A DNA stretch of 42,059 bases from the IMG/VR virus record IMGVR_UViG_3300030376_000797, positions 1 to 42,059 of that record; one strand, 5' to 3'. Positions 24,098 to 42,059 of the stretch are shown one piece after another. Under the pieces are notes generated by a model. It was not told where the DNA came from, searched no databases, and saw nothing but the letters and a program-made list of their open reading frames with translations. Numbering within the stretch: the stretch's first letter is position 1; every line of letters starts with the position of its first letter. The position numbers and the translations under genes are program-made. This DNA is from a virus (lineage: Duplodnaviria; Caudoviricetes).

Positions 24098-24372
24098 TGG
24101 GAAAAATTAGAAGAAAGAATCCTAACATAAAGAGAACTGCTAACAGTGGTATAAATCATTATTCTAGTGATGCAACTAGTACAAGGGATTCAAATTATCA
24201 AATAGATAAAACAGTAGAAAAAACAACAACAAGTAAAGAAGAAAAAGATGGAGCTGTAGGTACTATGAGAATTGTAGTAGATGGAGAAAAACCTTTTTTA
24301 GAAATAAAATCTAAAGAAGGATGGGTAAGAAGCGATAATTCAAGTGCCTCTGGGTTTTCATTTAAAAAATAA
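24097..24372 (+). CDS. Small virion-associated hypothetical protein
   Basis: TAATG coupling; 91 aa. Confidence 0.6.
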   Translation: MGKIRRKNPNIKRTANSGINHYSSDATSTRDSNYQIDKTVEKTTTSKEEKDGAVGTMRIVVDGEKPFLEIKSKEGWVRSDNSSASGFSFKK

Positions 24373-24392
24373 GTATATTAAAAGGTGATATT

Positions 24393-25592
24393 ATGGGAAA
24401 TTGGTTATCAGATTGGATAGATACAAGAAGCGGAGCTAATCTAAAAATAGATGCTGACGCTCAACAGGGTCGTTTTAATACAGCGATGAAACCTGTTACA
24501 GAGGGTATGGCTGAGATGAAGGGCATTGTTAAACAACAAATGGACCCTAACTCAAGTCTAAATCAAAACGCTTTAGCAACTTCAAAAGAACAATCAGCAG
24601 ATGATATTGCTGAAGCCAATAGATTAGCAGGTCGTAATGTTGCAATGGGTGGAGGCAATGCTACAGCCGCATCCTTTCTTAGTCAAGATGCTATAAATAA
24701 TATGACTGGTAAAGTTTATTCTGACTTTCAAAACAATATGAATAATAGAACTGAAGCTGGTTTAGAAAGTTTAAGTGGTATATATTCTAATTTAGGTTCT
24801 ATAGCACAGGCTGGATTCAATATGAATGAGTCAGCTTTAGCTAGTAATAAAATGATAGACCGAAACGCAACTATAGCTAAGGGTAATATGCTTGGTGGAG
24901 CGTTAAAGATTGGTGGTGGTTTATTAAGTGGTAACCCAATGATGGCTCTTAGTGGTGCAGGTAGTATGTTGCAAGAAGGTGGACCAGTAGGATATAATAC
25001 AGGTGGTCAAGTAGAAGACCCAGAAAACCCTAAGCCAGTAGGTAATGGTACTTCAGATGAAGACTCAATGTTAGACTTAGCAATGCAACAAAGAAAAGAT
25101 GATGCAAATTTTATGTACTGGAAAAATGCTCGTGGTTATGAAGAGGCAAGAAGCGGAGAAAAGTTTAAAGGATTTGCTAAAGGAATGGTAGGTGGAAACC
25201 TTGCTGGTACTTTATTAAGCACAGTTATCCCGGGAGCTCGGATTCCTGCTACAATAGCCGGTGGGTTATACGGAAGATATAAAGGTGGAAAAAACTTTGA
25301 AGAAGAACACGAAGAAGATTTTAGTGCAGAAGATAGAGCTAGGGTAAAAGAAATAAGACAGAGAAGAAAAGAGGGTTATCAAAAAGGTGGTCAATATAGC
25401 CCACTACCCGGTGATATAGTAGATGCTAAACTAGAACCCGGTGAATATGTATTAAATAGGAATGCAGTTAATACTATAGGTAAAGAAAATCTTGATGAGA
25501 TTAATGAAGAAATATCTCCTAGATTTCCTAAACAAAATCCTGATGATGACCGAAGTATAAAGATGCGAATGGGAGGATACCTATATGGCTAG
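24393..25592 (+). CDS. Internal virion (ejection) protein 1
   Basis: N/Q/A/G-rich helical sequence with Gly-zipper segments and the DIVDAKLEPGEYVLNRNAV motif. Position after the nozzle gene. Confidence 0.65.
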   Translation: MGNWLSDWIDTRSGANLKIDADAQQGRFNTAMKPVTEGMAEMKGIVKQQMDPNSSLNQNALATSKEQSADDIAEANRLAGRNVAMGGGNATAASFLSQDAINNMTGKVYSDFQNNMNNRTEAGLESLSGIYSNLGSIAQAGFNMNESALASNKMIDRNATIAKGNMLGGALKIGGGLLSGNPMMALSGAGSMLQEGGPVGYNTGGQVEDPENPKPVGNGTSDEDSMLDLAMQQRKDDANFMYWKNARGYEEARSGEKFKGFAKGMVGGNLAGTLLSTVIPGARIPATIAGGLYGRYKGGKNFEEEHEEDFSAEDRARVKEIRQRRKEGYQKGGQYSPLPGDIVDAKLEPGEYVLNRNAVNTIGKENLDEINEEISPRFPKQNPDDDRSIKMRMGGYLYG

Positions 25593-27756
25593 TCCATTAG
25601 AAACTTATTTAAGAAAGACTAAACGAAACAATGCACTTATTAATGTAAGTAGGAGAGGTGACCAAGGTGGTGGCTCAGTTTATAATAAAGATGACGAACG
25701 TGCAAAAATAGAAGCAGAGTATCTTGCTAATACAAAGATACCCCAAGCACCAGAATTTAAAGTTACTAATAGTCCAGCAAGAGAAGCTCGAAGATATAGA
25801 GATGCTAATAGAGTTCAAGATGAAAAGATAGTATATGAAGCTAGTATAAGAAATCAATTTGACCAAGCTAGAGGAGTAGGTGGAGATATTGGTTTAAAAC
25901 AAATGCATCAGATAGGTATGAATAATAGAGATGGCGTTAGCATATTTGATAAAATGTATAAAGGTGAAATGACATTTAATGAACTTGCTTCTAATTTACC
26001 TTCAGGTAATACACCTAAACCACCTAGTCTTAATGAAGGTCATAGTAATCAACTAGACCAGATGATAGCTAATGGTGTTACTATGGATGATGTTAGGATG
26101 CAACCGGGTTTAAAAAATGCTGTAAGTAACGCTTCTTTAAAGCAACAAAGAGCCCTTGAGTATAATACTACCAAAGCTAACGATGCTATGGACCTAGCTG
26201 ATAGAACTCAAATGGAATCTGACGCAAGAGATAAAGCTTATAATCAAAAAAGAAGTATGGAAGAAGCCGCTTATAAAGATAAAATGATAACTGAAGGTGG
26301 TAAATCATATTATGGTCCGGGAGTTGACCAAGATAGAATGAACTTACTTGCTAAAGATTTTGTTAAATATGATGATGAAGCACCTTTACATATGGTTTCA
26401 GCTTTAATGGGCGATAAAGACGAGACCGGTGGCTTAATGGGTATGTTAAATATACGTAAAGTTTTAGCTAAAGAAGGAGCAAGTAAAGAACAATTAGCTA
26501 AATTTGATGATTGGGGTCATAGTTCAAGAATTAAAAAGATGGAAAAAGATAACCCTAATAATTTCTTAAATGCAGAACAATTAGCTGATAAAAGAAATAA
26601 AGCAAAGCTTGATGAAATGATGGCTGTTGCTCCAGTTTCTTTATCTAAGGGTAGTAAAGCAAAACCTAGAAAGAAAAGCAAGGCTAGAGAATTATTATTA
26701 ATGGCTCAAAGAGGTGGACAAAAGTTTGCTTCGGGTTTAACTACAAGTAAAGACGACTGGAGGCATAAAGTTGCTGAAGGTGGGTTTATAAGTAAGCTTG
26801 GTGCAGGTAGTAAAGCAGTTTATGATAGATACTTTGGCGATGCTATTGCTTCTTCTAGGTATGATGATATAGCTGAAGGAGATACTTCTTTAGATGGTGC
26901 ACAGATTAAACACAGAAGAGATGCATTAGGAGAAGGTAAAGCTAGTACTGGTGATGTAGCTGGTAAGTTTCTTAGACAAGCGGCTGGAGACACAGTAACA
27001 GGTGCAGGTTTAGCGGCTATGGGAATTGCAGGGGCTCCAGTTGCATTAGCTAAGGGAGCAAAAGCACTATACGACAAAGCAAATGAAGGCAAAGCTGACT
27101 ATGAAGAATTAGCTGAGGGTAAGAAAAAGGGAAGCTTATTACAAAGACTTGGTAAAGGAATGACTTTTGCCGGTAACGCTATAGATATAATGAATGCTGA
27201 TAACCCATCTCTTGAATATGCAAATACTGATATGAAATTCTATGATGGTAAAAGTGATGAAAAAATAAAATCTATAGATATGAGTGAAGCTGGAGATGTT
27301 AATAAACCTGTTGCAGAAACAGAAGAAGCTGTAGAAAACCCAGCTCTTGAAGGCTCTGCATTAAAAGAAACAAATGTTCAAGCTAAAGTAGATGCCGCTC
27401 AAAAAGATATACCTTCTCCATTGTTAACAGATGAAATGGATGCTAGAACAAGACAGCAATTAATGGTAGATGCTGGTTTAGATATTGGTTCAAGTGGAGA
27501 AAACAAAGACGGAGTAGATGGTGACTTTGGTGCTAAGTCTGAAGCCGCTTGGAAAGAGTATACAAGTATGGTGGAAGGTGGAGATTATACCACAGGTGCT
27601 GATGGAAATATGGTGTATGATTTTAGTGGTGGAACTGGTAATGCTATTGTTCCAGAAATAACTGATTACAATAGAAGAGTACCCGGCTTACCATCCATTA
27701 CAAAACAACGAGGTGGATTTATATCAAGGCTCATTAACAACAGGAGAGCATACTAA
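25585..27756 (+). CDS. Internal virion (ejection) protein 2 with peptidoglycan-binding-like motif
   Basis: Low-complexity helical sequence, hydrophobic GAGLAAMGIAGAPVAL segment, and QQLMVDAG...VDGDFGAKSEAAW. Confidence 0.65.
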   Translation: MASPLETYLRKTKRNNALINVSRRGDQGGGSVYNKDDERAKIEAEYLANTKIPQAPEFKVTNSPAREARRYRDANRVQDEKIVYEASIRNQFDQARGVGGDIGLKQMHQIGMNNRDGVSIFDKMYKGEMTFNELASNLPSGNTPKPPSLNEGHSNQLDQMIANGVTMDDVRMQPGLKNAVSNASLKQQRALEYNTTKANDAMDLADRTQMESDARDKAYNQKRSMEEAAYKDKMITEGGKSYYGPGVDQDRMNLLAKDFVKYDDEAPLHMVSALMGDKDETGGLMGMLNIRKVLAKEGASKEQLAKFDDWGHSSRIKKMEKDNPNNFLNAEQLADKRNKAKLDEMMAVAPVSLSKGSKAKPRKKSKARELLLMAQRGGQKFASGLTTSKDDWRHKVAEGGFISKLGAGSKAVYDRYFGDAIASSRYDDIAEGDTSLDGAQIKHRRDALGEGKASTGDVAGKFLRQAAGDTVTGAGLAAMGIAGAPVALAKGAKALYDKANEGKADYEELAEGKKKGSLLQRLGKGMTFAGNAIDIMNADNPSLEYANTDMKFYDGKSDEKIKSIDMSEAGDVNKPVAETEEAVENPALEGSALKETNVQAKVDAAQKDIPSPLLTDEMDARTRQQLMVDAGLDIGSSGENKDGVDGDFGAKSEAAWKEYTSMVEGGDYTTGADGNMVYDFSGGTGNAIVPEITDYNRRVPGLPSITKQRGGFISRLINNRRAY

Positions 27757-29339
27757 TGGCTGAAATTAAACAAACTAGAGTATCAGGCTATATGAATCCT
27801 ATGATGCCTGAGAAAGACGAAGGCAGAGAAGCTATACAGAAAAGACAACTTGCAATGCAAGAAGCTGTAGCAAAATATCAAATAGCTGGTATGAAAGAAA
27901 ATCAGAGAATGCAGGGTATAAATAGAAAAGCAAATGATTGGTTTGCTTCTAATTCTGATTCCTTGTTTTCTCAAACTTCTAATCCGTTAGACTCTAACTC
28001 ACTAAACTTTAGTGACCCTGAAAAAATATCAGCAATGTATAAAAAATACAGAGAAGAAGTTGGTGGCAATTATGATACATTCCAAGAATACATTAAGATG
28101 GGTCAGGCTAATGAGATAAAGAATAATAGAAGACAGCTTGATATAATGATGGATGAGTATGAAAGTCCAAAAGAAGCTAGAAGAGCTATTAATGAACAAT
28201 TACAAGGTATGAGTGAGGGAGATAGGAATAAACTATTCTCTATGCTTGATGAAGAAACTTATTCAAGGTTAAATGAAATTTACGATGTTAATCAAGGTGG
28301 TTTCTTTGATACGTTAATGGAAAATAAAGGTAAGGTAGCAACTGGAATTGCAGTTACTGGATATGGTGCGTATAGATTGTTAAAAGGTAGAGGCGGTGCA
28401 AATGTCATTGATGATATTGTTAAAGCTGGTAAAAAAGGTGTTAAGAAAGGGAAAAAAAGTTCTAAAGCAATTAAAAAAGAAGTATTGCAATTAGGTCCGG
28501 GAGCAAAACAATTAGGACCCGGAGCAAAGCAATTAAGAGGTATGACTAACGACCCTAATACTATTTACGCAGGTGGTAAAAGAGTCCCTTTGATAGGTGG
28601 TAAAGTAAGTAAAGGTCCTAAAACATCGCAAGATTTAGCTAGAGAAGCTATGGAAAAACAGGGTAAAGGTGTACCAAGAGAAGCAAAAATTAAGTTTGAT
28701 AGTAAAAAAATACAAGATGCTGAGTTTGAAGATATAAAAGTTAAATCTAGGCAAGTTATTCCTGACAATAAAATATCTGCTGAAATGAAAATGGTTGGCG
28801 AAAAAATGAGGTCAGGTCAAATTACAAAACTTGAAGCCAAATCTTACAAAGAAGCTATAGAAAGTTTACAAAGACAAGGAACTCCACTTACTAAAGGTGC
28901 TTTAGTTGAGACTTTGAAATCTAGACCGGGAGGAGTTAGATTCTTAGAGAAGATAGCCAATAAAGAGATAGGATGGAAAGGCACTATAGGAGCTGGATTA
29001 GCAGGTGCTTACATAGGTGGTGGTATAATGTCAAAAGGTGCTGAAGCTTTAGGCTTTGGTGAAAAAGGACAGAAAGTTGGTGAGATAGTTGGTAATACAG
29101 GTGGAGCAGTTGGAACTCCGGGAGCCATTAGAGGCTTACAACAGATAGTAAAACAACAAGGTCCTAAGGCTATATACGACAAACTCCTAAAGAAAAAGGG
29201 AGCTAAGTGGGTAGCTAGAAAAGTTGCTACTGGTGCATTAAAAGGATTATTAGGCGGTAGTGGAATTGGAACTGCTTTAGGTGTAGGCTTACTTGCACTA
29301 GACGCAATGGAAATTTATAATATTTTAAAAGAAGATTAA
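27756..29339 (+). CDS. Internal virion (ejection) protein 3, probable membrane-inserting
   Basis: Several Gly-zipper hydrophobic helices (GTIGAGLAGAYIGGG, GLLGGSGIGTALGVGLLAL). Confidence 0.65.
   Translation: MAEIKQTRVSGYMNPMMPEKDEGREAIQKRQLAMQEAVAKYQIAGMKENQRMQGINRKANDWFASNSDSLFSQTSNPLDSNSLNFSDPEKISAMYKKYREEVGGNYDTFQEYIKMGQANEIKNNRRQLDIMMDEYESPKEARRAINEQLQGMSEGDRNKLFSMLDEETYSRLNEIYDVNQGGFFDTLMENKGKVATGIAVTGYGAYRLLKGRGGANVIDDIVKAGKKGVKKGKKSSKAIKKEVLQLGPGAKQLGPGAKQLRGMTNDPNTIYAGGKRVPLIGGKVSKGPKTSQDLAREAMEKQGKGVPREAKIKFDSKKIQDAEFEDIKVKSRQVIPDNKISAEMKMVGEKMRSGQITKLEAKSYKEAIESLQRQGTPLTKGALVETLKSRPGGVRFLEKIANKEIGWKGTIGAGLAGAYIGGGIMSKGAEALGFGEKGQKVGEIVGNTGGAVGTPGAIRGLQQIVKQQGPKAIYDKLLKKKGAKWVARKVATGALKGLLGGSGIGTALGVGLLALDAMEIYNILKED
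28488..28540 (+). repeat. 21-bp tandem repeat (about 2.5 copies) encoding QLGPGAK
   Basis: CAATTAGGTCCGGGAGCAAAA CAATTAGGACCCGGAGCAAAG CAATTAAGAGG. Confidence 0.8.
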
Positions 29340-29342
29340 AAT

Positions 29343-32300
29343 ATGGCACAAGAAGGTTTGTTTGAACCTAAAGCCACGAAGGAACAAACTAGGGCATCAG
29401 TAACAAAATATAGGTTACGCCCTGAGCTTTGGGATGGCAATGAAAAAGAGATAGAAAATCTCAAAAGACACGCAGAACATCATAGGATACCCTTTTCTCG
29501 TAGCGACCAGCATCAAGATAGTTTTCTTTCAGGGGTATTAAAGAACTATGGTAGAGGTGTTATGGAAGGCTATACAGCTAACATAGCACAATTTGATGAC
29601 CAACCAGATACTATAAGTGAAAAAGTAGCTAGACAGCTTGGTTCTCTATCAGGATTCCTTGGTAAATTACCGGGAGGTAAGTTTAGTAAAACTATAAGAG
29701 CTATTAACGCTGTAACAGCAGGAAGGTCGTTACCTTTAGCTGGAGCAAACGCTGTTACCAAGTTTGTTAGTAAAACAGGTAAACCTATTATACGGGATAT
29801 GCCTAATGTTAGAAAATTATTCCAAGAAGAAAATTTAGCTGGTGACGTATTAAAAGGAGCATTTCATCTAGGAACTGCTAGTGCTATATCTGATTGGAGA
29901 GGTGTAGTAGATGAAGGTATGCCTAGACTTATAGACGCATTTAAACAAGGTGGTATTTGGGGTGGTGGTTTTAGAGCTATAGGTAATATGAAAGGCTTTG
30001 GTAAAAGATTACAGCCTCATCAAGTAGACTCAGCAACTATGATGCCTATAATGAGTAAACTAGAGCCCGGTCAAAAGTTTGATGCTATATTAAAAGCTGG
30101 TACTATGGGTGCAATACAGGGTGGGTATGCAACTAGTCTAGACCTACCATTAGAAGAACAAGTATATGAATATGTAATGGGTGCTTACTTTGGTTTTAAC
30201 GAGACTCCACTTCAATTAAGAATATCAAAGAAAGCTATTGCTGAAACTATATCTAAGAAATATGAAGACCCCACTGGATTACCTGACCCAGAGATGCATC
30301 CGAAATGGGATACTTGGACTAATGAAGCACAAAAATATATAAAAAGAGATTTTAAAGAATTTTTTGGTGAAAAAGAAGATGTAAGAAGAGCTACTTATAA
30401 CTTATATAAAAGAAGTTTAGCTAATGGTGAAGTAAACGAAAGAGATATTATTGAAGAAATGGAATCAATGGTAGCTAAAAATCTTGAAGGAACTGAGTTT
30501 GCACCAGATGGTAAAGTAATTAAACCTATTAGTAAAGGTGATTTAAAAAGAGTACAAGATATTATAAAAGACAATCCTAATAAGGAAGAGTATCAAGACC
30601 TTGATATGCACATTAATGAAATATCTAAGTTACCCGGAAAAATATCTGGTCAAGGTGGATTTGTTGATAGATATGTAATGCCTAATATAGAAGGTGGTAA
30701 CACAGCAGATAGATTAGTTGAGTCTATAAAAATTAATAAGCAATGGGATAGTTTACATCAAGTAGTTAATGGCGTTAGTATGCCTAGAAAAGGTGCTGTA
30801 GACGCTATGTACGACTACTTAAAGAAAGAATATAAGCGTACTGATTTATCTCAACCTGAAATGGATTGGTGGAGAAACTGGGCTGAGCAAACTAGAAAAA
30901 AGAAACTTGTATTACAAACATACTTTGCTGATGGTAAAGTTGCTTATGTTGACAAAGGTGTTAACATACTTGGTAATAAAAAAGAATTAGTATTTGAACC
31001 ACCTTTAATGGAACAAGTATATCAACAGTTAGGTGGTGAAGGTAATTTTTATGCTATATCTGACCATTTCGTTAGGAAAGGTAAAGAGTATAAGCTTAAT
31101 GATGTAAATAGATTACAAGCAGATTTAATGAGAGAGAAAGGCGGCAAAAAAAAGAAAGCTGAAAACATCATTAAACAAATAAAAACTAAAATGTTAATGG
31201 AGATGGATAAGGAAGGTTACCATTACGTTGGTGGTCGTGGCGATAAAAAAGCTATGTACTTTGTTAAAAAGAATCCACAAGTAAGAGGTAGTGTTCAAGA
31301 GAATATGCTACAAATAAAGAAAGCTTTTGTAGATGCTGGTATGGATGCTGAAAGATTTGACAATCTTAGAAATTATAGTAAAAGACAATTTTGGGCTAAG
31401 AATAGAATGTTGCGTCAAGATTACTTTGATGAAGCTTTTATAAGCAATATACATTACGATGTATACAATAATTTTGGAGCCAATGTAAAAGACTTTAACA
31501 AAGCCTTGGTTCAAATGTTAAGTAAACCCGGTTATGTTAGCGATTCTAAAGCTTACAATAAGAGAGCACAGATTTGGTTTAATACTGGAATGACTACTAA
31601 TGATAGAGTTGCTAGAGAATACTTAAAGAAATATGCAAAGAGATATAAAGAAAACATAGATGTCTTAGATTTCTTTGGGAGCGATGGAAACTTAAGGGCT
31701 AGAGGTCAGTTTTGGAATGATGATGTAAAAAATTCAAAGAGTAAAAAAGTTCTTCGTAAAAATTCTGAAAGACCTGAATCTTTTGATGGCGGTATACCTG
31801 CACTTCCAGAATTTATATACGCTTTAAACAAGGCTAATGGTATAACTAATGAGGGTGCAGTTAATAAATCTTTTATTGTAGCTCCTAATGGTAGACACGG
31901 AGCATTGCTAGGAAAGTATATGTTCTTTGAAGCTACTCCTGATATGGCGGCTTCAATGAGAAAAGATGGCATACATTTTATTGCACCTAAGTCTGCTATA
32001 AAACAATTTGGCACACGAAGATATGGTGATGTTGTTGAAGCTGGAATTAAAGATAATTATAATAAACAAGATTTTGAAAACGAAGTAAATGCTATGGGGT
32101 TAAAACATAAGAGACATCCGTCTGACCCTGATAGGATAGGTGAAGTTTTTATACCAGCAGATTTGCAAAGACAGGGCTATGGCACAAGGTTCTTAAAAGC
32201 TTTTGAAAGATACAGAGCAAATGAAGGAGCTACTCAAGTAAAGATTAACGCTATTGGTGGTCGTAAAGACTTAGGTAGTTTTGATTTAGACAATGTAAAC

Positions 32301-35300
32301 TTTTGGAAGAAACAAGGTTTTAAAGTAGATACAAAAGAGCTTGAGAAAATGAAGAAAGCTGGTATAGATATACAAAAAATAAAGACTAGCTTTAATCCAA
32401 AAGCAATAGGTAAAACTGTTGGCGTAGTTCCAATGGTAAAAAGTATTAAGTCTAGGGACCAAAATCGTATGCGTTTTGGAGGACCTACATATGATGTTAG
32501 ACTAGATAATATTAGAACAGTACTATCTGAGGTTACAGGCAATAGAGATATGGATGGTGCCAAGTTTGCTAAACAGTTATGGTCTACTATAACGCATTTT
32601 GGAGTCAATCCTACTAACCCTAAGCTTGTTAAGATAATGTCTGATGAGCTAATTAGAAACTCTGTTGAAGGTGATGAGAATTTAAACGCTCAATGGGATG
32701 AGCATATTAAAGCACCAAATAAAGTTTCTGAAGCTAAGGTGTTGGATAACATAGATGAAATTTCATTAAATAGATTAATGAATGCAGTTGTTGATAAAGA
32801 TAATGAAGGATTTGCAAGTAAGATTTACGATAGTATTTTAAAGAAATCAAATGAAATTGAAGCACAAAAAGCAGAAGACTCAGAGACTAATAGAGATGAT
32901 TATTTTAGTGCGGCTGGTGAGATAAGTGAGTTTGATACCATAGTAGATAGGATGGGTGAATTGTATCCAGATGGTAATCTTGGTTTCTATATGCATAAAA
33001 TGGCTAAAAACTATAGACAACAAGCTGTTAAGAATTATATAGTAGATAGAATTAGTAGACCTAAATTAAAAAATGGAATGAAATCAAGAATGAGACCTTG
33101 GGACCATTCTATGTGGAGCCATAAAAAGTTTAACATCTTTGACGACCCAGATGGAAAGGGACAAGAAGTATTTTTCTTAGATGATGGGGCTAAACAAAAA
33201 AAGATATATGACCCGTTTTTTGATAAAGGATATGAGACGCTAGGTAACATATGGAAACAAAGAAAACTAGGCGATAAGGGTATATATAAGGACAATTTAG
33301 ACTATATAGATGACATACTAGAAGCTGTTAATATGAGAGTACCTATGGATTCTCAAAGTGGTGCACACGTTTTAAAGTTTGCTGGATTTACTGGGACCAA
33401 AGGTCACGGAGTTTTATTACACGGAAGAGTGATGGATGCATTAGGTGGTGCAGATTTAGATGGAGACAAAGCTTTTATATTCTTTGGCGGTAAAAAAGGT
33501 ATGCATAAAGAGTGGAAAGATATTTGGAAAGGACAAAGAGACGAATTTATAGATAAGGATGGTAATGAAATGGCGGCTAAATCTGATTTAGCAAGAGCTA
33601 TGTTTGTTAAGTCTGATAAAATTGTAGAAGATTTTGGTCAAAGTAGATTTAGTAAATACGACCCATATTGGAGAGGGTTTATGTCAGAAGCGGCAGGAGA
33701 TGGTCGTGACACTTTAGGAGGTGCTGTAACTACTAGGCAATCACTTGCATCTGCTTATGACGCTATGAGATTTTCTAATACAGCAGACGTTCAAGGTAAA
33801 GTTGTGTATATAAATGGTCAGTATTTACCAAGTATACTAAGGAAGGGTTCTTATTATTATCCTGTTGACATAACAAAGAATAAAAGAATTATTTATATGA
33901 AACAGACTCCTAAACAAAGAGGAGCAGTAGAAAGATTTAAAGAATTAGCAAGAGCCGCTATCAACCTTGGTGCTGACCCTATGGATGAGTCAGGTATTGT
34001 TAGTCCTGATGTAATTAAAGACATACTTACAGACACACTATTTAAATTTGAATATGTTACTGGTAAAAAAGTTGGTAATAAAAAGAATAAAAAGTGGATA
34101 TTTGGAGATAGCTTTGGATATTATAAAGGTAAGAACAATGATAAGGCTAGAGAATTAGCAAGAGTTGATAAAGTAAAAGGTTTTCATTCTATTTATGGAA
34201 GATTAAACAACACTTTATATGGTAGGAATTTTCAAACAGGTAGAAAATATAGTTATGGAGAGATTCAATCTAGTGTTCAAGATATAGATTGGTTACCTAA
34301 TTCTGCTAAACAAAACTTAGTAGGTTATATAGCTAAAGAATATAGAAATATACCATACGAGGATAACGTATTTAGAAGATTAGATAGAAATGCTCTTGAT
34401 GATTTATACAATTCTAATAGAAGAGACTTTGCTGATAACCCTGACTTACTTGCTTTGTTTGAAAGAACAAGTATGATGACTAGAAGGGGACCATTAATTG
34501 ATAATATACTTAATCACGAAATATATGATGCAGATGCAAGGTTAGCATTAGCACATAATAAAAAGAAGTTTTGGGATTTATTTAGCCGTAAATGGCATCC
34601 TCAATTTGACGAACAAGTTAAAGGTGATAAACGATATAAAATGGGTAACGTTCCTGCTCACCTATGGTATAAGTTTGTTAAAAACAGAGAAGCTACTAGC
34701 GTAAATGATAGGTTACAATATTTAGAATATAAATTAAATCAAGCTGAAGATTACATTACTAATGATTTATCCGATATGTCTTCTATTAGACATATACTAA
34801 ATATTAAAAAACAATACAAAATAAGCGATACTCAGTTTAAAAAAGTAAACGCTATGGTTAATGAGTTAAAAATGAACTCATATTATGTTAAAAAAGCTAA
34901 TAAAGAATTAAGAGAAGATGTTAGAGAGCTTGGTCAAAAATTTAAAGGCGATTTTGATAGTGAAAGATTCTTAAAGATGATTGGATTTCGAAAGAAGTCA
35001 GGTGCTGGTATGGACCAACAAGCTGTTGATAGACAGATATTGTTTGATAAAAAACAATTAAAGTTGCAAGGATTGCAGAATCTATATGATTCCTTGTTAT
35101 TGGGTACTTTTCAAAAGACTAATTTAGATTTAATTAAAAAATACGAGAATCAAAAGAAACCTTTAACTCCTTCTGAAAGGTCTTTATTGCAAGTCTTGCG
35201 TAAACACGGGCAAAACACAGCTCTTTTAAGAATAGGGTTCCAGTCTAAATCAGTTAAAGATGGCTCTGTTAAGAAGCATTTAAACGAATATAACAAACTA

Positions 35301-38300
35301 TATAAACAAGTAGCTCAACCTAGTGCTGAAGAAATGAAGCAGATAAAAGATATTGGGGATGGTAACGAATCTCAAAGACCTCCTAGTTATAATGATGAAC
35401 TTGGAAAAATGTCTGAAGGTAAAATTATAGAAGCGTCTGATTTATCTGAAGCTGATAGGATTTATATGGATATGATTGAACCTTTTAAAGGACTTAAGAA
35501 AGGCAATGTAAAAGACAAAGAACTCTATAGAACAATGCTTAGTATAGAAAACCATATGAAACATTATCATAATATGGATACTAGAGCCTTTAACGGTTTT
35601 TTTAGGTCTTTGTTCCAAAAAAATATTAATATGGCTACTAAGTTTGACTTGCAAAACTTTGATAGAATACTTACTGATATGCGTAAAGGTAGTACTTGGG
35701 TTAGATTTACTAATTGGGTTACAGGTAAAAACAAAGAACCTCTACCTGATTTAGAAAAAAGATACTGGTCAAGATTTCCAGAAGCTAATAATAAAGAATG
35801 GTTAAAGTATCCGGGTATGATGAAGTGGGAAAAAGATATTGCCCCTTTTAAAGATAGATTTAACAATAGTATTATGGGTGAAGTAGTAAGACCTACTACT
35901 ATTATGGGTGATTTACAAAACTTTTCTGCTAAAATATCTGAGTTTTCTTTACAAACAAGTGAAGAAGAGACTAATAAACTTAGAGAAGAACTTGCTCCAT
36001 TAATACAATCACACGCAGATGGTCCAGACTTATGGAAGATTGCCATACCTCTAAGAGAAAGAGCTATGGTTTCTTTAATCTCTGAAATAGAAGGCGGCGG
36101 TTCTAAGATGAGCCATAGGCAAATGCATTATATAAGAAATTATGAAGCTGTACAGCCTATGTTACGCAAACTTAAAGATAAACAATACGTAATACCTACT
36201 AAAGATGGTGCTGTTAAAATGAGCGGTATGGACGTTATTAATAAGATAAATGAAATCATCACGAATAAAAACAAGTATATGGCTAACTTTATTAATGGTG
36301 ATGCTGACTATGTAAAACAGTTTACTAAGGTAGCTTATAACAAGCAAGGTCAGTTAACTTGGTCTGGAGTTGATTTAGTTGCTAAGAAATGGATGAGATA
36401 TAGTAAAGAGAAGTTTAGAAAAGGTGAGAAGTATGATATAAGTAAATTTGGAATTAACGGTATTATGGAAATATCTAAGCTTATTCAAATAAAATACACT
36501 ACTCCTAAAAGATTTAGAACTAAAAGATTATTAAAAGAATTATCTGGTCAACTTGGTTTAGGTATGCAAAGAACAGAATTGTGGGACCCTGAAGCTTATT
36601 TTCCTCACGTTGCTTTTGATAGGACTGAAGTTAATAAACAATTATCTAGAGGTTTAGACGCTATATTTGCTGACAAGAAAAAGACTAAAGAAAGAAAATA
36701 TAAAGAAGCTAAGAAATTAATATATCAATCTCATACTATGACTGGTGATTGGGCACCTAAATCTATTAGTGAAGAAAACTTTGATGTTATGCAAGAGACG
36801 TACTCTAAGTTATCTCAAGAAGTAGATAAGAAAAAACCAAGAGCTATACTACCTAATACTTTTAAAAAAGCATTTAGTCAAAATCAAAGAGAGTCACATC
36901 TTGGTGGTTGGTCTAGAGAGTTAGAAGCGTATGAAGCCAATATGAAAAATACTATTGATACTTTTTATAAAGAAAGTATGCTTAGTCTTTCTAGGATGCA
37001 CATACAAGAGTTTCATAGTAAGTTTTTAAAACAGAGTAAGGATAAGAAATTAGCGGCTAGATGGGGCAATTTCTTAAAGCTATTTACTCAATCATCTATG
37101 GGTTACCCTATAGACATACCAGAAGCAATTCAAAACGACCCTAAGATGAAGATAAAAGGAACTCCTTATCAATGGTTTGCTGATAATAATGCTCGTAAAA
37201 GAATAGAATCTATTAAAGAAAAGCTTGGTATAAGTCACAAATCTTTAAAGAAATATGGAATAAAACGCAGTGATGTTGAAGGTTTGCAGGGTATGACACA
37301 AAACCAATTACAATATTGGAGTGGATTAGAAGCTAAATGGCAAATGGCATCATTACTTGCTCACCCTAAGAGTGCTATCACTAACTTGTTTGGTGGTACT
37401 ATACATACTGGTATAGGTGCAGGTGTTCAGAATCTTGCAAAAGCTAGAGACATAGATTACTTAAGAACAAATATTAATCCTAATTGGAGAAGTATGAGGG
37501 ATGTTGAGAAGTGGGTAGAAAGCTTAGGTATTGTTGAAGAATTTCTAATGTATGAGGCTGGGTTAAATAAAGAGATACGTGGTAAAAGAATGGATTCTTT
37601 TCTTAAAGCGGCTATGAGTAAGCTTAGAAGAAATCCTAATCTTAGTGATACCTCACTTGCAGACTTAGCTAAGGAATACAAAGTTACTGACACTATGTGG
37701 AATAAAGCATCTTGGTTTATGCGTAGACCTGAAAGAACTCTTCGTAGAGACGCTTTTATGTCACATTATATCAAGGCTAGAGAAAATTTTAAGGGTGCAA
37801 TAAGAGATTATGACCACCCGTTTTTAATAGAGATGGGGAGAAAGGGTGTACAAGCTACTCAGTTTTTATACTCTGCTCCGTTCAGACCAATGTGGACGAA
37901 CAGTGCCTTGGGTAGGGTAATGTCACGTTTTCAGTTATGGAGTTGGAACTCTGTACGTTTTAGAAAAGACATATTAAGTGAGGTCGGGCAGATGGGATAT
38001 CAACCCGGCACTCCTGAATTTGAACGTGCTAAAAGACTAATTACAGCAGACGCTATGATTTATAGTCTATCAAGTATGTTTATGTATAGTCTTTTTGATA
38101 ACGCACTCCCAGCTCCTTGGAACTGGTTTCAAGATACAGCAGATGCTATGTTTGGTGATGAGGAAGATAGAGAAAGAGCTTTCTTTGGTCACCCAGCAGG
38201 ACCATTATCAATTATTAAACCACCTGTATTTAGATTTGATAAACCTATGTGGGATGGTTTGGTACACGGGAACTGGGATAAAATGACTGATTATTATCTC

Positions 38301-38483
38301 TACACAATGTTACCGTTTGGTAGAATCATTAAGGATGTTGTTGGTCCGGGTGGATATATAGACAATCCATTCTATGCTGTTGAAAAATTTACTGGTGTAC
38401 CTTACATCGGTTTAGGAGATTATTTACAAGATGTTAAGAAAGGAAAGAATGTAGGAAAAGGGTTGTTCTCTGATTTATATTAG
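29343..38483 (+). CDS. Giant ejected polyvalent protein: putative virion two-barrel RNA polymerase with inserted GNAT domain
   Basis: FDG (D at aa 815), K842, K858, SAIK (884-887), Q1078, RVP (1332), GADLDGD (DLDGD at aa 1371-1375, nt 33453-33467). GNAT motifs QRQGYG (942-947) and FWKKQGF. Confidence 0.8.
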   Translation: MAQEGLFEPKATKEQTRASVTKYRLRPELWDGNEKEIENLKRHAEHHRIPFSRSDQHQDSFLSGVLKNYGRGVMEGYTANIAQFDDQPDTISEKVARQLGSLSGFLGKLPGGKFSKTIRAINAVTAGRSLPLAGANAVTKFVSKTGKPIIRDMPNVRKLFQEENLAGDVLKGAFHLGTASAISDWRGVVDEGMPRLIDAFKQGGIWGGGFRAIGNMKGFGKRLQPHQVDSATMMPIMSKLEPGQKFDAILKAGTMGAIQGGYATSLDLPLEEQVYEYVMGAYFGFNETPLQLRISKKAIAETISKKYEDPTGLPDPEMHPKWDTWTNEAQKYIKRDFKEFFGEKEDVRRATYNLYKRSLANGEVNERDIIEEMESMVAKNLEGTEFAPDGKVIKPISKGDLKRVQDIIKDNPNKEEYQDLDMHINEISKLPGKISGQGGFVDRYVMPNIEGGNTADRLVESIKINKQWDSLHQVVNGVSMPRKGAVDAMYDYLKKEYKRTDLSQPEMDWWRNWAEQTRKKKLVLQTYFADGKVAYVDKGVNILGNKKELVFEPPLMEQVYQQLGGEGNFYAISDHFVRKGKEYKLNDVNRLQADLMREKGGKKKKAENIIKQIKTKMLMEMDKEGYHYVGGRGDKKAMYFVKKNPQVRGSVQENMLQIKKAFVDAGMDAERFDNLRNYSKRQFWAKNRMLRQDYFDEAFISNIHYDVYNNFGANVKDFNKALVQMLSKPGYVSDSKAYNKRAQIWFNTGMTTNDRVAREYLKKYAKRYKENIDVLDFFGSDGNLRARGQFWNDDVKNSKSKKVLRKNSERPESFDGGIPALPEFIYALNKANGITNEGAVNKSFIVAPNGRHGALLGKYMFFEATPDMAASMRKDGIHFIAPKSAIKQFGTRRYGDVVEAGIKDNYNKQDFENEVNAMGLKHKRHPSDPDRIGEVFIPADLQRQGYGTRFLKAFERYRANEGATQVKINAIGGRKDLGSFDLDNVNFWKKQGFKVDTKELEKMKKAGIDIQKIKTSFNPKAIGKTVGVVPMVKSIKSRDQNRMRFGGPTYDVRLDNIRTVLSEVTGNRDMDGAKFAKQLWSTITHFGVNPTNPKLVKIMSDELIRNSVEGDENLNAQWDEHIKAPNKVSEAKVLDNIDEISLNRLMNAVVDKDNEGFASKIYDSILKKSNEIEAQKAEDSETNRDDYFSAAGEISEFDTIVDRMGELYPDGNLGFYMHKMAKNYRQQAVKNYIVDRISRPKLKNGMKSRMRPWDHSMWSHKKFNIFDDPDGKGQEVFFLDDGAKQKKIYDPFFDKGYETLGNIWKQRKLGDKGIYKDNLDYIDDILEAVNMRVPMDSQSGAHVLKFAGFTGTKGHGVLLHGRVMDALGGADLDGDKAFIFFGGKKGMHKEWKDIWKGQRDEFIDKDGNEMAAKSDLARAMFVKSDKIVEDFGQSRFSKYDPYWRGFMSEAAGDGRDTLGGAVTTRQSLASAYDAMRFSNTADVQGKVVYINGQYLPSILRKGSYYYPVDITKNKRIIYMKQTPKQRGAVERFKELARAAINLGADPMDESGIVSPDVIKDILTDTLFKFEYVTGKKVGNKKNKKWIFGDSFGYYKGKNNDKARELARVDKVKGFHSIYGRLNNTLYGRNFQTGRKYSYGEIQSSVQDIDWLPNSAKQNLVGYIAKEYRNIPYEDNVFRRLDRNALDDLYNSNRRDFADNPDLLALFERTSMMTRRGPLIDNILNHEIYDADARLALAHNKKKFWDLFSRKWHPQFDEQVKGDKRYKMGNVPAHLWYKFVKNREATSVNDRLQYLEYKLNQAEDYITNDLSDMSSIRHILNIKKQYKISDTQFKKVNAMVNELKMNSYYVKKANKELREDVRELGQKFKGDFDSERFLKMIGFRKKSGAGMDQQAVDRQILFDKKQLKLQGLQNLYDSLLLGTFQKTNLDLIKKYENQKKPLTPSERSLLQVLRKHGQNTALLRIGFQSKSVKDGSVKKHLNEYNKLYKQVAQPSAEEMKQIKDIGDGNESQRPPSYNDELGKMSEGKIIEASDLSEADRIYMDMIEPFKGLKKGNVKDKELYRTMLSIENHMKHYHNMDTRAFNGFFRSLFQKNINMATKFDLQNFDRILTDMRKGSTWVRFTNWVTGKNKEPLPDLEKRYWSRFPEANNKEWLKYPGMMKWEKDIAPFKDRFNNSIMGEVVRPTTIMGDLQNFSAKISEFSLQTSEEETNKLREELAPLIQSHADGPDLWKIAIPLRERAMVSLISEIEGGGSKMSHRQMHYIRNYEAVQPMLRKLKDKQYVIPTKDGAVKMSGMDVINKINEIITNKNKYMANFINGDADYVKQFTKVAYNKQGQLTWSGVDLVAKKWMRYSKEKFRKGEKYDISKFGINGIMEISKLIQIKYTTPKRFRTKRLLKELSGQLGLGMQRTELWDPEAYFPHVAFDRTEVNKQLSRGLDAIFADKKKTKERKYKEAKKLIYQSHTMTGDWAPKSISEENFDVMQETYSKLSQEVDKKKPRAILPNTFKKAFSQNQRESHLGGWSRELEAYEANMKNTIDTFYKESMLSLSRMHIQEFHSKFLKQSKDKKLAARWGNFLKLFTQSSMGYPIDIPEAIQNDPKMKIKGTPYQWFADNNARKRIESIKEKLGISHKSLKKYGIKRSDVEGLQGMTQNQLQYWSGLEAKWQMASLLAHPKSAITNLFGGTIHTGIGAGVQNLAKARDIDYLRTNINPNWRSMRDVEKWVESLGIVEEFLMYEAGLNKEIRGKRMDSFLKAAMSKLRRNPNLSDTSLADLAKEYKVTDTMWNKASWFMRRPERTLRRDAFMSHYIKARENFKGAIRDYDHPFLIEMGRKGVQATQFLYSAPFRPMWTNSALGRVMSRFQLWSWNSVRFRKDILSEVGQMGYQPGTPEFERAKRLITADAMIYSLSSMFMYSLFDNALPAPWNWFQDTADAMFGDEEDRERAFFGHPAGPLSIIKPPVFRFDKPMWDGLVHGNWDKMTDYYLYTMLPFGRIIKDVVGPGGYIDNPFYAVEKFTGVPYIGLGDYLQDVKKGKNVGKGLFSDLY

Positions 38484-38794: not shown

Positions 38795-38957
38795 TAATCT
38801 TGATACTTGGTTGAGATAAAGTTTGTTTACTTTTTTTAACCTTAATTTGATTAGCGTGGTAATTAGCCCATAGTTTTAACGCCGCACGTTTACGCTCCGA
38901 CATATCAGTTACTAACTTTGCATCTTGCCCTTTGTAGGGTCTTTGTTTTCTTTTCAT
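38760..38957 (-). CDS. Small basic hypothetical protein
   Basis: TAGGAG SD 5 nt before ATG; 65 aa. Confidence 0.65.
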   Translation of the reverse strand: MKRKQRPYKGQDAKLVTDMSERKRAALKLWANYHANQIKVKKSKQTLSQPSIKINVGMEYKDEKQ

Positions 38958-39227: not shown

Positions 39228-39665
39228 TTAATCGCAATTAGAACCGGGTATACATTTAGTAAACTCCCCAGTTCTTTGCAAATTCTGTTCGTCTTCTTTA
39301 TTCCAATTACAATTTTCTTTCATACTTTTCATCAAATCGTTGACTTTGTGTCCATATTGTATTTGATTTTCTTCAAAGGCTTGAGAACTTAATAAAGACA
39401 TACCTTTAAATATGATTGCAAGTTCATCAGGTTGTACTGTTTTCTTGTTGTTTCTCCTGTCTGCCTTTTCTTTATCATACTGTTCAAGTAATACTGCGGC
39501 TAGATAAACTACTAAATCAATCATTTCTTCTGTTGATTCTTTTAAGTTATCTCTGCCACCCTCTCCGTTTAGAGGTATATCTTGTCCATATTTCTTTTGT
39601 CCTAATTTTAGTCTATCTTTAACAAGATTTAATACTCTATCATTAGTGTTCATTTTCATTACCAT
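39228..39665 (-). CDS. All-alpha NTP pyrophosphohydrolase-like protein
   Basis: GQKKYG...LKESTEEMIDLVVYL (ExxEExxD pattern). Confidence 0.55.
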   Translation of the reverse strand: MVMKMNTNDRVLNLVKDRLKLGQKKYGQDIPLNGEGGRDNLKESTEEMIDLVVYLAAVLLEQYDKEKADRRNNKKTVQPDELAIIFKGMSLLSSQAFEENQIQYGHKVNDLMKSMKENCNWNKEDEQNLQRTGEFTKCIPGSNCD

Positions 39666-40093
39666 CTGCCTCCTTTGGCAAGTTTTCTCATTACATATTT
39701 ATTTAGTTCGTCTGGTAATCCACCTACTAATTGCATTAACAATATAAAGTCTTGCTCATCTAACGGTCCCTTTCTTGTATTACAAGTCTTACATATTAAT
39801 TGTAAGTTTTCTTTTGTGCTCGGTCCGTTTTTAGCAAGGGGTATGATATGGTCACAGGCTATATTTCTATAGTCTAATCTCTTATCACAGTAACAACATC
39901 CTTTTCCGTATATATCATAAAACATTTTTCTTATATCTGTTTTATCTATAGTGCATTTTACGTTCGCTTCTATACTCCTTCTTTTTAGAGAAGACATTAG
40001 CGTAGACATTTTTGAAGATAACTTTTTATAAGCTTTGTTCCAGAATGTCTTATGTATAGGATATAGTTTTTCTTTAAATTGTTCTTTTTTCAT
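39659..40093 (-). CDS. HNH endonuclease
   Basis: CCYC...DHIIPLAKNG...NLQLICKTCNTRKG. Confidence 0.92.
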   Translation of the reverse strand: MKKEQFKEKLYPIHKTFWNKAYKKLSSKMSTLMSSLKRRSIEANVKCTIDKTDIRKMFYDIYGKGCCYCDKRLDYRNIACDHIIPLAKNGPSTKENLQLICKTCNTRKGPLDEQDFILLMQLVGGLPDELNKYVMRKLAKGGRW

Positions 40094-40101
40094 AATGCTG
40101 T

Positions 40102-40127
40102 AGGGGGATAGGATTAACTACCCCCCT
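40102..40127 (-). promoter_or_regulatory. GC-rich stem-loop just upstream of the HNH start codon
   Basis: Minus strand AGGGGGGTAG-TTAATC-CTATCCCCCT, 10 bp with one G.U and no U tract. Confidence 0.55.
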
Positions 40128-40135
40128 TTAGTTTG

Positions 40136-40345
40136 TTACGCTAGAGTATACTCTGCGTATTTGTTACCAGTATGTGACTCAATCTTGTTGGTCTTTACTT
40201 TGTGACCATCTTTTCTTAAGTCGCATATTACAGCCGCTAACCTAAAACATCCACACGAATTTAAAGCTAACATTGGATTAACTTTAACTCCGTCTTGTAA
40301 CATTTTTAGTATCATTGACTTTTGGGATTGTTTCTGTCTTGGCAT
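40136..40345 (-). CDS. Winged helix-turn-helix protein
   Basis: SQKSMILKMLQDG...RLAAVICDLRKDGHKVKT...YAEYTL; AAGGAG SD. Confidence 0.8.
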   Translation of the reverse strand: MPRQKQSQKSMILKMLQDGVKVNPMLALNSCGCFRLAAVICDLRKDGHKVKTNKIESHTGNKYAEYTLA

Positions 40346-40539
40346 ATGTTCTCCTTTGCCTTTACAAAATGAATGTGTAAACCGAACTTCCAGATGCTAA
40401 TAGATATGTCAACATTAGTAGAATTTTGAGTCATAGTTATGAACCCTAATCGCATTATATTGCATAGAGTTACATAAAGACCCTTATTGTACTTATTACT
40501 AATGATATGTCCTCTAAAAAGACTATTTAACATACGCAT
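40312..40539 (-). CDS. Hypothetical protein
   Basis: TAATG coupling with the upstream gene; 75 aa, beta-rich. Confidence 0.55.
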   Translation of the reverse strand: MRMLNSLFRGHIISNKYNKGLYVTLCNIMRLGFITMTQNSTNVDISISIWKFGLHIHFVKAKENICQDRNNPKSQ

Positions 40540-41072
40540 TAACTTCTCCTTACTCGTTTTACTTTCTCAGCATAAAAGCCGGGAATAGTTTCACCTTGGT
40601 TAAGGACCTTTCTAGCCGCTTTCTTATCAATCTTCTCTACGTGTTCCCACGTTTTGTAGACATCAGGTATAGCATCTTTATCTACTATAGCTACTGGTCC
40701 AAGAGTTTCGTACAACTTATATCTTGCAGTATCGGATTCATATACTCCGTTTTCGTCACCAAGTTCTGATACAACCATAGGCAAGAGTGATTTATTAAAG
40801 TAGTCTTTTAAACTTTCTACTGCTTTCTTCCTCACTCTTAATCTAGTTTGTTCTTGCTTGATAGCTTCTATTTCTGCATCAATAAGATGTTCTTTTCTAG
40901 ATAGTTCAACCATAAAATAGTCTATACCATCTACTTTCTTTCTTATTTTACCTTGTATAGTCTGCATTTGACCTTCTAATATTAACTGCTCTTCGTTATC
41001 TGTTTCCATTTGCAAGTTAATATCAGTGTCTATATACTCTCCTATTAGGTCTCGTGTTGTTTTCTTTTCCAT
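40539..41072 (-). CDS. Siphovirus Gp157-like coiled-coil protein (start corrected to 41072)
   Basis: KVDGIDYF...EIEAIKQEQTRLRVRKK...IPDVYK...IDKKAARKVLNQGETIPG. The ATG at 41072 is coupled to the upstream stop. Confidence 0.8.
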   Translation of the reverse strand: MEKKTTRDLIGEYIDTDINLQMETDNEEQLILEGQMQTIQGKIRKKVDGIDYFMVELSRKEHLIDAEIEAIKQEQTRLRVRKKAVESLKDYFNKSLLPMVVSELGDENGVYESDTARYKLYETLGPVAIVDKDAIPDVYKTWEHVEKIDKKAARKVLNQGETIPGFYAEKVKRVRRS

Positions 41073-41224
41073 TACCTTCGTCCTTCTTTCTCTATATGGA
41101 CTGCTTGTTGTATGTACCATTCTATTTGCTTTTTAACAGAGCGTTTTTCTTTTTCTGCTATTGTTTGCAGAACTGCTTTTTCTTCTGCTGTTATTTCAGC
41201 TTTTACAATGTGTAGTTTCTTCAT
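41072..41224 (-). CDS. Ribbon-helix-helix DNA-binding protein (50 aa, not in ORF track)
   Basis: Sequence MKKLHIVKAEITAEEKAVLQTIAEKEKRSVKKQIEWYIQQAVHIEKEGRR. AAGGAG SD; TAATG overlaps at both ends. Confidence 0.75.
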   Translation of the reverse strand: MKKLHIVKAEITAEEKAVLQTIAEKEKRSVKKQIEWYIQQAVHIEKEGRR

Positions 41225-42059
41225 TATACTCTCCTTGGTAGTCTAAAGGATGGAGTCCAGTTTAAATCAACTGTAAAAAGGTCACCATCGCTGTTTTTAA
41301 ATAGTTCTACAGTCTTTTCTGAACTATCTTGTTTTCCATTGATACCAATTACCTTACGTGATGCGTTTTCTATTGCACCACTACCTTTACCTGCGTAAAT
41401 GTCCAGTATTTGATTTCTGCTGTATTCTCTTGACACCTGAGAGACTTGTATTATGATAATATCCATATTAACAGCTAAGTTTGATAGATAGTGAGATATA
41501 TATTTGATTTGTTCGTACTCGCCTCTTATGTGCGGCGGAGTCTCTACTAAATCTATATAATCTACTACTACTAACTTAGGTTGTAGGTCCCTAACTTGTT
41601 TTTGAATTAAGTCAGGTGATGGACTAATAGTTTGCATAACTACGTGTTCTAGTAAATGACCATACATCTTACCGACATTCTTACTGTCTTTAGATACATC
41701 TTCTTTACTCATACCACTAGCTATTTGCAAGTTTCTTCTATGCATATACCAGCCACTTAATTCTAATGATAGAAACAGTGTTGGTAACTGCCATTCCTTG
41801 TTAATAACGTTATTTTCAAAATCGTAACCTAACGCTATGTTCTGAGCTAATGTTGTTTTATTAGCACCAGTAGGACCAAAGATAGTAACTAACTCACCCG
41901 GATATACTGTACAATCCTTGTCTTCTAGACCAAACATCTTACTAAGGTCTATAGCTCTTCCAGAAAAGTCTGTTTCTAATCTTTCTTGTAACTCGCTTTG
42001 CAAACTACTACTAGTTTTTACATCAACTAAGTAGTCTTTATTTTTATAATATACACACT
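41224..42059 (-). CDS. DnaB-like (SF4) helicase domain, probably the C-terminus of a primase-helicase; 5' end truncated
   Basis: PGELVTIFGPTGANKT, SLE, VVVDYIDL, SQVSRE and GSGAIEN motifs. The frame stays open to the window edge (CVYYKNKDYL...). Confidence 0.88.
   Translation of the reverse strand, partial: CVYYKNKDYLVDVKTSSSLQSELQERLETDFSGRAIDLSKMFGLEDKDCTVYPGELVTIFGPTGANKTTLAQNIALGYDFENNVINKEWQLPTLFLSLELSGWYMHRRNLQIASGMSKEDVSKDSKNVGKMYGHLLEHVVMQTISPSPDLIQKQVRDLQPKLVVVDYIDLVETPPHIRGEYEQIKYISHYLSNLAVNMDIIIIQVSQVSREYSRNQILDIYAGKGSGAIENASRKVIGINGKQDSSEKTVELFKNSDGDLFTVDLNWTPSFRLPRRV

Follow-up and report, generated by a model that had tools for sequence, protein, structure and literature searches.

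The 42,059-nt stretch of DNA analysed here (hereafter the window; IMG/VR record IMGVR_UViG_3300030376_000797) derives from an uncultured marine phage whose late (virion) arm ends in a gene for a giant protein of 3046 amino acids (aa). Structure prediction and fold searches indicate that this protein almost certainly contains a two-barrel fold of the type found in gp66 of phage phi14:2 and in the RNA interference (RNAi) polymerase QDE-1, and that it is very probably an active RNA polymerase (RNAP). We consider the following mechanism likely as a whole: a single-chain two-barrel DNA-dependent RNAP, fused to an ejection protein, would be injected, would transcribe early genes and would carry an acetylating GNAT insert. 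A preliminary description, made from the sequence alone, had assigned a polymerase to 31743..33990, which corresponds to aa 801-1550 of the giant protein. This range is indeed predicted to be polymerase; a GNAT-fold insertion of about 135 residues inside it had been overlooked.

The motifs that the preliminary description had listed are all found at their places, namely SFDGG at 813 (D815), K842, K858, SAIK at 884, KQL at 1077 (Q1078), MRVP at 1331 (R1332), LGGADLDGDK at 1367, GRDTLG at 1454 and LGAD at 1542 (D1545). DLDGD is the sole DxDxD in the whole protein and follows the R-x-P motif by 39 residues (R1332 to D1371). A word-seeded protein search with aa 730-1660 yielded 157 homologues, the best 120 of which, down to 27% identity, were aligned. 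D815, K842, K858, K887, Q1078, R1332, P1334, D1371, D1373, G1374, D1375, G1454, R1455 and D1545 are kept in 120/120, and because each named residue is kept at this divergence, the motif set is not due to chance. N739-K740-R741-x-Q743, absent from the earlier motif list, is invariant too in the full-length alignment of the 120 homologues. In the set of 198 family proteins of at least 2000 aa used for motif counts and tree building, R-x-P followed by DxDxD is present in every member (198/198). The ratio of nonsynonymous to synonymous substitution rates (dN/dS) across the polymerase core is 0.06-0.30. The giant protein and its parts are as follows.

29343..38483, plus strand: giant protein, 3046 aa, last gene of the late (virion) arm, no cysteine
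29520..30212, plus strand: conserved glycine-rich N-terminal region, aa 60-290 (conserved glycines in the alignment)
31200..34352, plus strand: predicted single-chain two-barrel RNA polymerase core, aa 620-1670 (model and fold searches)
31557..31571, plus strand: N739-K740-R741-x-Q743 before the first barrel (alignment)
31755..32027, plus strand: predicted first double-psi beta-barrel (DPBB), DPBB-B, about aa 805-895, with D815/K842/K858/K887 (model; approximate boundaries)
32061..32462, plus strand: inserted GNAT acetyltransferase-fold domain, about aa 907-1040 (Pfam, PHROGs, fold searches)
32490..33062, plus strand: predicted helical connector between the barrels, carrying Q1078 (model; assigned by analogy to gp66 and QDE-1)
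33063..33488, plus strand: predicted second double-psi beta-barrel, DPBB-A, aa 1241-1382, with R1332-x-P1334 (model)
33453..33467, plus strand: catalytic Mg-binding loop DLDGD, aa 1371-1375 (motif, invariance)
33663..33773, plus strand: long helix, aa 1441-1477 (model residues 822-858), with G1454-R1455, likely the bridge helix
33924..33992, plus strand: helix and loop, aa 1528-1550, with D1545-P1546, likely the trigger loop
35772..37118, plus strand: helical region, aa 2144-2592, weakly matching PhiM1 ejectosome chain 8vb2_A
37641..38165, plus strand: C-terminal region, aa 2767-2941, weakly matching PLxRFG family NF032893

The two-barrel assignment is well supported by the predicted structure. 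An AlphaFold2 model of aa 620-1700, based on 62 aligned sequences, reached a predicted local distance difference test score (pLDDT) of 87.5 and a predicted template modelling score of 0.83, and both double-psi barrels are predicted in it. Foldseek against PDB placed phi14:2 gp66 (6vr4) first, with an E-value of 3.1e-6 and as the sole match below 0.001, followed by QDE-1 chains and P74 gp62. Re-alignment with VIA gave QDE-1 a Z of 15.1 (504 residues aligned, root-mean-square deviation (rmsd) 5.3), RDR2 13.7, gp66 12.3 (658 residues, rmsd 4.5) and gp64 11.7. In a wide VIA search of 48,161 chains, QDE-1 (Z 14.3, 529 residues, rmsd 5.8) and gp66 (13.2, 663 residues, rmsd 4.4) were followed by RDR2 (12.5), P74 gp62 (11.4) and P23-45 gp96 (10.3); the top 12 rows are two-barrel RNA polymerases throughout, and after them come beta-prime-type subunits, matched with the second barrel only. 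The model aligns end to end with QDE-1 571-1186 and gp66 644-1805, and the designed barrel 7dww matches DPBB-A (model residues 625-763). Of the BFVD matches, the best two are unnamed proteins (22-24% identity); behind them come others without a name and, at about 10% identity, numerous crassvirus proteins. A family profile aligns with gp66 without gaps from R-x-P to DxDxD at gp66 1314-1372, which is not significant by score (probability 0.2%, E-value 0.24), although the aligned segment is the catalytic one. By eye, the invariant first-barrel residues D815/K842/K858/K887 match QDE-1 D709/K743/K767, and N739-K740-R741-x-Q743, matched to QDE-1 R671/Q673 and gp66 K894/R895, is likely a product-strand binding helix. 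The first two points on which the preliminary description had said that its reading could fail are the lack of a barrel pair and a DLDGD not conserved in homologues; the pair is present in the model and the catalytic loop is conserved, and thus neither was found.

The insert lies between the barrels. From R892 to Q1078 the window protein has 186 residues as compared to a family median of 49. Eight homologues (P0001-P0008) contain a 182-200-residue version, and P0090, P0096 and P0107 carry different long inserts at the same inter-barrel site. The insert matches GNAT in PHROGs (E 0.0076) and in Pfam (E 1.1e-4), as do 4/4 clade members scanned; the insert of P0003 scores 20.8 bits against a Pfam cut-off of 20.7. 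Numerous GNATs match the stretch of model residues 288-421 (aa 907-1040), headed by 1y9w (Z 8.2, 91 aligned, rmsd 2.7), and AcrVA5 (PDB 6IUF) matches with Z 6.6 over 87 of 95 residues. QRQGYG at 942 and NFWKKQGF at 986 are what we take to be motif A and motif B, the acetyl-CoA-binding motifs. The aligned inserts, with P0005 compared in part, keep motif A (R/Q-x-x-G-x-G) and motif B (N-x-x-F-W-x-K-x-G) among members about 46-61% identical in the core. In four pairs dN/dS of the insert is 0.08, 0.18, 0.15 and 0.20, like that of its flanks: the GNAT insert is under purifying selection. An assembly chimera as its source is ruled out by the eight homologues and by contigs from two other studies which span the insert with 0 and 1 differences. 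In a FastTree tree of 375 residues around the second barrel from the 198 proteins, which lacks an outgroup and whose branches are long, the nine GNAT carriers fall into a single clade with support 100, nested in the family, and therefore point to one gain. Weak searches among 12 and 259 candidates found no free-standing or otherwise fused GNAT relative. On motifs and selection, catalytic activity of the insert appears fairly likely.

Inserts are not restricted to this clade. In 15 homologues chosen for their long inserts, cpYpsA SLOG scored above the cut-off in three, at three different sites, and the others gave weak SLOG, gp30.3, DUF4326 or DnaJ matches. Different inserts (SLOG, gp30.3-like, DUF4326 or without match) occupy several loops in P0069, P0075, P0104, P0070, P0118, P0035, P0090, P0096 and P0107.

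Packaging of the giant protein into the virion is suggested by its composition and its position. It has no cysteine, and 184/189 homologues longer than 2500 aa are likewise cysteine-free (12 cysteines in 578,002 residues). The same holds for the genes before it:

24097..29339, plus strand: four cysteine-free genes (91, 399, 723 and 527 aa) upstream, likely partner ejection proteins

In profile-library searches these four gave no family match. The 1318-aa gene preceding the cysteine-free block (20141-24097) encodes 11 cysteines; it is conserved, has no family match and is by position only a likely tail protein, and the similarity of its product to phi14:2 gp71 is not significant. Cysteine suppression has been described for the Schitoviridae ejection operon, where it was ascribed to passage through the periplasm (PMC11445570). 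A model of the C-terminal third (aa 2080-3046) reached a pLDDT of 71; neither Foldseek at E <0.001 nor VIA at Z >=8 gave a match to it. Within it, aa 2144-2592 match chain 8vb2_A of the pre-infection PhiM1 ejectosome (Foldseek E 0.04; Z 6.5, 248 aligned, rmsd 6.5), presumably a gp16-like protein; the other VIA rows align fewer than 80 residues. T7 gp16, N4 gp50 and crassvirus cargo proteins are not among the C-terminal matches listed, which does not exclude them. The nearest named Atlas clusters of the C-terminus are LPD39/LPD38, with a low recognition score. A convergent HNH gene comes after the giant gene in 58/71 loci; the remaining 13 end before it. Taken together, ejection of the giant protein from the virion is highly likely. 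The earlier proposal of a virion-packaged polymerase transcribing early genes gains indirect support from the absence of cysteine, the place at the end of the late arm and the C-terminal likeness. Possibly the glycine-rich region of aa 60-290 contacts the membrane during ejection. In many relatives (e.g. L014-L024, L076:8040-10154) an extra late-strand gene of 400-900 aa directly follows the polymerase gene; it is missing from the clade of the window, and three scanned copies gave no family match.

The presumed template lies on the opposite strand.

39228..42057, minus strand: end of the convergent replication arm with HNH, Gp157 and DnaB-like primase-helicase, likely the template arm

Part of the early arm beyond the window was read in the close relative G005 and in nine others. 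It encodes a small ubiquitin-like protein, an E2-like protein, JAB, E1/ThiF, Sak4 and a primase-helicase; E1, JAB, Sak4 and helicase are found in 9/9 relatives. Across the early arms read, in which not every open reading frame (ORF) was scanned, no second RNA polymerase was seen. The same applies to a DNA polymerase beside primase-helicase and Sak4 in G001, G003, G004, G006 and G007, and these phages therefore likely use the host replicase.

In the proposed mechanism, the giant protein is encoded last in the late arm, after the four cysteine-free genes, as gene order shows. With their products it would be packed into the head and then ejected across the cell envelope, its helical C-terminal third serving in the manner of the large ejection proteins known from T7-like and N4-like phages. 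The middle third is predicted to refold into an enzyme of the gp66/QDE-1 type; there, two Mg ions would be held by D1371/D1373/D1375 and D815, R1332-x-P would select ribonucleotides and K842/K858/K887 would contact RNA and nucleoside triphosphate. Like gp66 in phi14:2, the polymerase would transcribe the convergent arm with its ubiquitin-like module, Sak4, primase-helicase, Gp157 and HNH genes. It may also help to pull DNA in, and late genes would be left to the host polymerase. In the weakest step, the GNAT insert would be cargo on the injected chain, as would the SLOG inserts found in relatives, and once inside the cell it likely serves to acetylate a target of the host or of the phage.

Several results weigh against this interpretation. 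Profile searches of the giant protein in Pfam, PHROGs and NCBIfam matched no RNAP family, and no RNAP was matched in PDB by single sequence or by profile; GenBank phages (tblastn) and the ESM Atlas (polymerase core) gave no RNAP match either. Global template modelling scores are low against both gp66 and QDE-1, at 0.22-0.33 by query. D-P-M-D-E is the sequence of the likely trigger loop, which in either by-eye register with gp66 has no Lys or His at its tip, as opposed to the trigger-loop lysine present in gp66, QDE-1 and RDR2 (10.1101/2021.08.31.458351). Intergenic stretches of the window and three relatives show no repeated motif and no excess of sigma-70 sites; for gp66, too, the published account gives no promoter motif (10.1101/2020.03.07.982082). 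Some proteins of the window that are not ejected also lack cysteine. The ejectosome match is weak, its Z of 6.5 being of a size that helical matches commonly reach, and the match of aa 2767-2941 to PLxRFG NF032893 (E 6.9e-6) has 24.8 bits, far below the cut-off of 100. The GNAT score of the window insert, 22.6 bits, is just under the Pfam cut-off of 23.6.

Alternative readings differ in how much of this mechanism they retain. If the polymerase holds and the GNAT insert is carried along without catalysis, as a spacer or a binding module, its absence from most of the family, its shortness without the usual N-terminal part and the failure of weak searches to find a free-standing relative would be explained; the conservation of motifs A and B at that core divergence and a selection as strong as on the flanks speak against a passenger, which we regard as unlikely. 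Host transcription of the early genes, with the two-barrel RNAP active as a non-virion enzyme or mainly as a DNA-pulling motor, would accord with the missing promoter motif; a motor role has been proposed for DEV gp71 (PMC11445570), and P23-45 owns a non-virion two-barrel enzyme (10.1101/2022.12.01.518664). Against a non-virion enzyme stand the position of the gene at the very end of the late arm, where expression comes too late for the same infection, the lack of cysteine in homologues and in the four upstream genes, and the fusion of the polymerase to an ejection-like C-terminus, while a motor role is compatible with transcription and does not exclude it; this alternative is very improbable. 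Least credible of all is a PolD-like core making DNA or primers in place of the seemingly missing DNA polymerase. PolD is a two-barrel enzyme and none of the early arms read revealed a DNA polymerase gene, but PolD is outside the best 50 rows of either VIA list, the R-x-P gate, which binds the 2'-OH in QDE-1 (PMC9508822), is invariant, and the genomes encode their own primase-helicase.

The relation to the RNAi polymerases concerns the place of the family rather than the activity of the injected polymerase. DLDGD had been called QDE-1-like, which is the wrong label: QDE-1 has DYDGD (PMC4861493), and it is Arabidopsis RDR2 that has DLDGD (10.1101/2021.08.31.458351). Moreover, a fourth-position glycine is the general state among two-barrel enzymes (10.1101/2020.03.07.982082). 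Among the 198 proteins, 168 have DxDGD, 22 the gp66-type DxDID and 8 DxDAD or DxDSD, with DxDID requiring at least four changes on the FastTree tree. As glycine and isoleucine switch inside the family, the motif cannot place it and lends no support to the suggested link of RNAi polymerases with the virion RNAPs of phages. The reading of the family as an evolutionary intermediate, nearer than gp66 to the eukaryotic RNAi polymerases, would still draw on QDE-1 heading both VIA lists, on the identity of DLDGD with the RDR2 motif, on the by-eye resemblance of R741-x-Q743 to QDE-1 R671/Q673 and on sub-threshold matches to Pfam RdRP (PF05183) in 2/15 homologues scanned (15.7-16.3 bits against a cut-off of 23.8, E 0.004-0.006); the giant protein itself has no match to this family. 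Opposed to this are the Foldseek lead of gp66 by three orders of magnitude, its alignment over more residues at lower rmsd, the crassvirus proteins making up much of the BFVD list, an R-to-first-D spacing of 39 as in gp66 and not 45 as in QDE-1 (R962 to D1007; PMC9508822), and the DxDID members; sequence trees are moreover described as not applicable between these families (Chaban et al.). The structural evidence is hence split, with a higher Z for QDE-1 and a longer, tighter alignment and better E-value for gp66. We find this closeness improbable, and equally improbable the wider version in which the family is the closest prokaryote-side relative of RNAi polymerases and an N4-style ejection machine with swappable loop effectors, here a host-modifying acetyltransferase. 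The single-subunit clade already holds phage enzymes and RNAi polymerases (10.1101/2022.12.01.518664); the family belongs to this clade, and an intermediate position is possible.

The phage itself, which has no cultured relative, is known from a linear virus record, about 80% complete, and matches to the window were found in marine and seawater metagenomes from several studies. Relatives at least 95% complete measure 49-55 kb, and the genome size of the phage group is about 53 kb. The plus strand of the window encodes terminase, P22-like portal, SU10-like capsid protein, collagen tail fibre, endolysin and spanin, and the minus strand the HNH, Gp157 and DnaB-like helicase genes. Among 50,697 GenBank phages the best matches of the terminase have 24-28% identity, and the capsid protein is matched by five records only (22-28% identity), the best being non-crass phages. 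No relative of the phage was found in 185,579 GTDB genomes searched for a host. An exhaustive search sizes the polymerase family at 236 clusters at 50% identity, and an IMG/VR search gave 329 matching stretches, of which 71 loci were kept for gene-order comparison. Our literature search found no report on this polymerase family. Ten supplementary files of PMC10770324 contain no family motifs; its 23 family alignments, outside this search, may include the family. In L006 the giant gene is split into ORFs of 2373 and 673 aa and is whole in the near-identical L013, likely an assembly error. Two RNA runs gave short contig pieces only, with strand and level unreadable, and were not used as expression evidence.

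Some features of the early arm deserve mention in their own right. An operon conserved in G005 (L081:9462-13629) and in G001-G004 and G006-G010 encodes a ubiquitin-like protein of about 70 aa, ending in GG in G006 and G008 and in SGA in G005, an E2-like protein with an HPH...C motif in 7/9, JAB and E1/ThiF; by its gene content the operon resembles a complete ubiquitin-like conjugation system encoded by the phage. Relatives of the E1 occur in crassviruses, for instance in crAss001. Terminator-like hairpins lie between the converging arms (window:39193-39208, 38927-38940), one of them readable on both strands; three were found as compared to 0.6 expected. A spore-photoproduct-lyase-like radical SAM gene is present in G003 (L075:16257-17111) and a 2OG-Fe(II) oxygenase gene in G005 (L081:17540-18133).

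According to a 2026 report (PMC13434306), N4 virion RNA polymerase (vRNAP) and gp66 are the only two structurally characterised virion-encapsidated phage polymerases. The present family would combine a catalytic core of the gp66 type with a body plan resembling that of N4. Its carriers are numerous ocean phages overlooked by profile libraries, and the strategy of the injected polymerase would extend to a large group of phages of about 53 kb. As the catalytic loop of most members carries the standard glycine, the active state may be easier to catch than in gp66, and the natural switches between glycine and isoleucine offer a way to test the role of the gp66 isoleucine. For the proposed phage origin of RNAi polymerases the family adds a missing branch. 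The GNAT insert suggests that the inter-barrel junction can accommodate an entire enzyme domain, and it points to acetylation as soon as infection begins.

Known systems share single traits with the giant protein. Phage polyvalent proteins are described as injected multidomain chains with swappable effector domains including RimI-like GNATs (PMC5512222), and the inserts show a like pattern; the polymerase listed there is N4-like, not two-barrel, while here the GNAT is inside the polymerase fold. Rac, a phage GNAT, shuts off host transcription (PMC7552054), which is an analogy only; Rac and AcrVA5 are phage acetyltransferases like the insert, with no sequence relation to it demonstrated. QDE-1 and RDR2 (PDB 2J7N, 7Y7P, 7W84) share the two-barrel core (Z 12.5-15.1), the R-x-P gate and the first-barrel aspartate, but identity is 8-10% and the context here is a phage virion. 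P23-45 gp96 and gp64 (PDB 8H2M, 8F72) are two-barrel phage enzymes (Z 10.3-11.7), and gp96 is a virion RNAP fused to a DNA-delivery (tape-measure) protein; P23-45 is a long-tailed Thermus phage with two polymerases, whereas here one was seen, next to a P22-like portal and an SU10-like capsid.

The closest parallels are gp66 and N4. gp66 (PDB 6VR4) is likewise a single chain with two barrels and a connector, aligned over 663 residues, has few or no cysteines, and its gene ends a late arm facing the replication arm; in phi14:2, gp65-67 close the late arm, and gp66 transcribes the early arm of the opposite strand (10.1101/2020.03.07.982082). It differs in sequence (about 11% identity) and in its DFDID in place of DLDGD, and the giant protein has in addition an ejection-like C-terminus fused in one 3046-aa chain, the GNAT insert and likely no trigger-loop lysine. 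phi14:2 is moreover a crassvirus with a 100-kb genome as compared to about 53 kb here. Capsid and portal have no significant BLAST match in phi14:2 (E 0.28 and 0.12), and with no significant sequence match to gp66 either, the family stands apart from it, as the preliminary description had supposed: the phage is not a crassvirus. N4 gp50 and DEV gp71 (PMC11445570, PMC13434306) resemble the giant protein in their size of 3000-3500 aa, the absence of cysteine, the polymerase in mid-chain and the smaller ejection genes adjoining. The N4 catalytic domain is related to the T7-type single-subunit polymerases and not to the two-barrel enzymes, and our searches showed no sequence or fold match to N4 vRNAP. 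The giant protein would work like gp66 and is built like N4 vRNAP, and is neither a crassvirus orthologue nor an N4-type polymerase.

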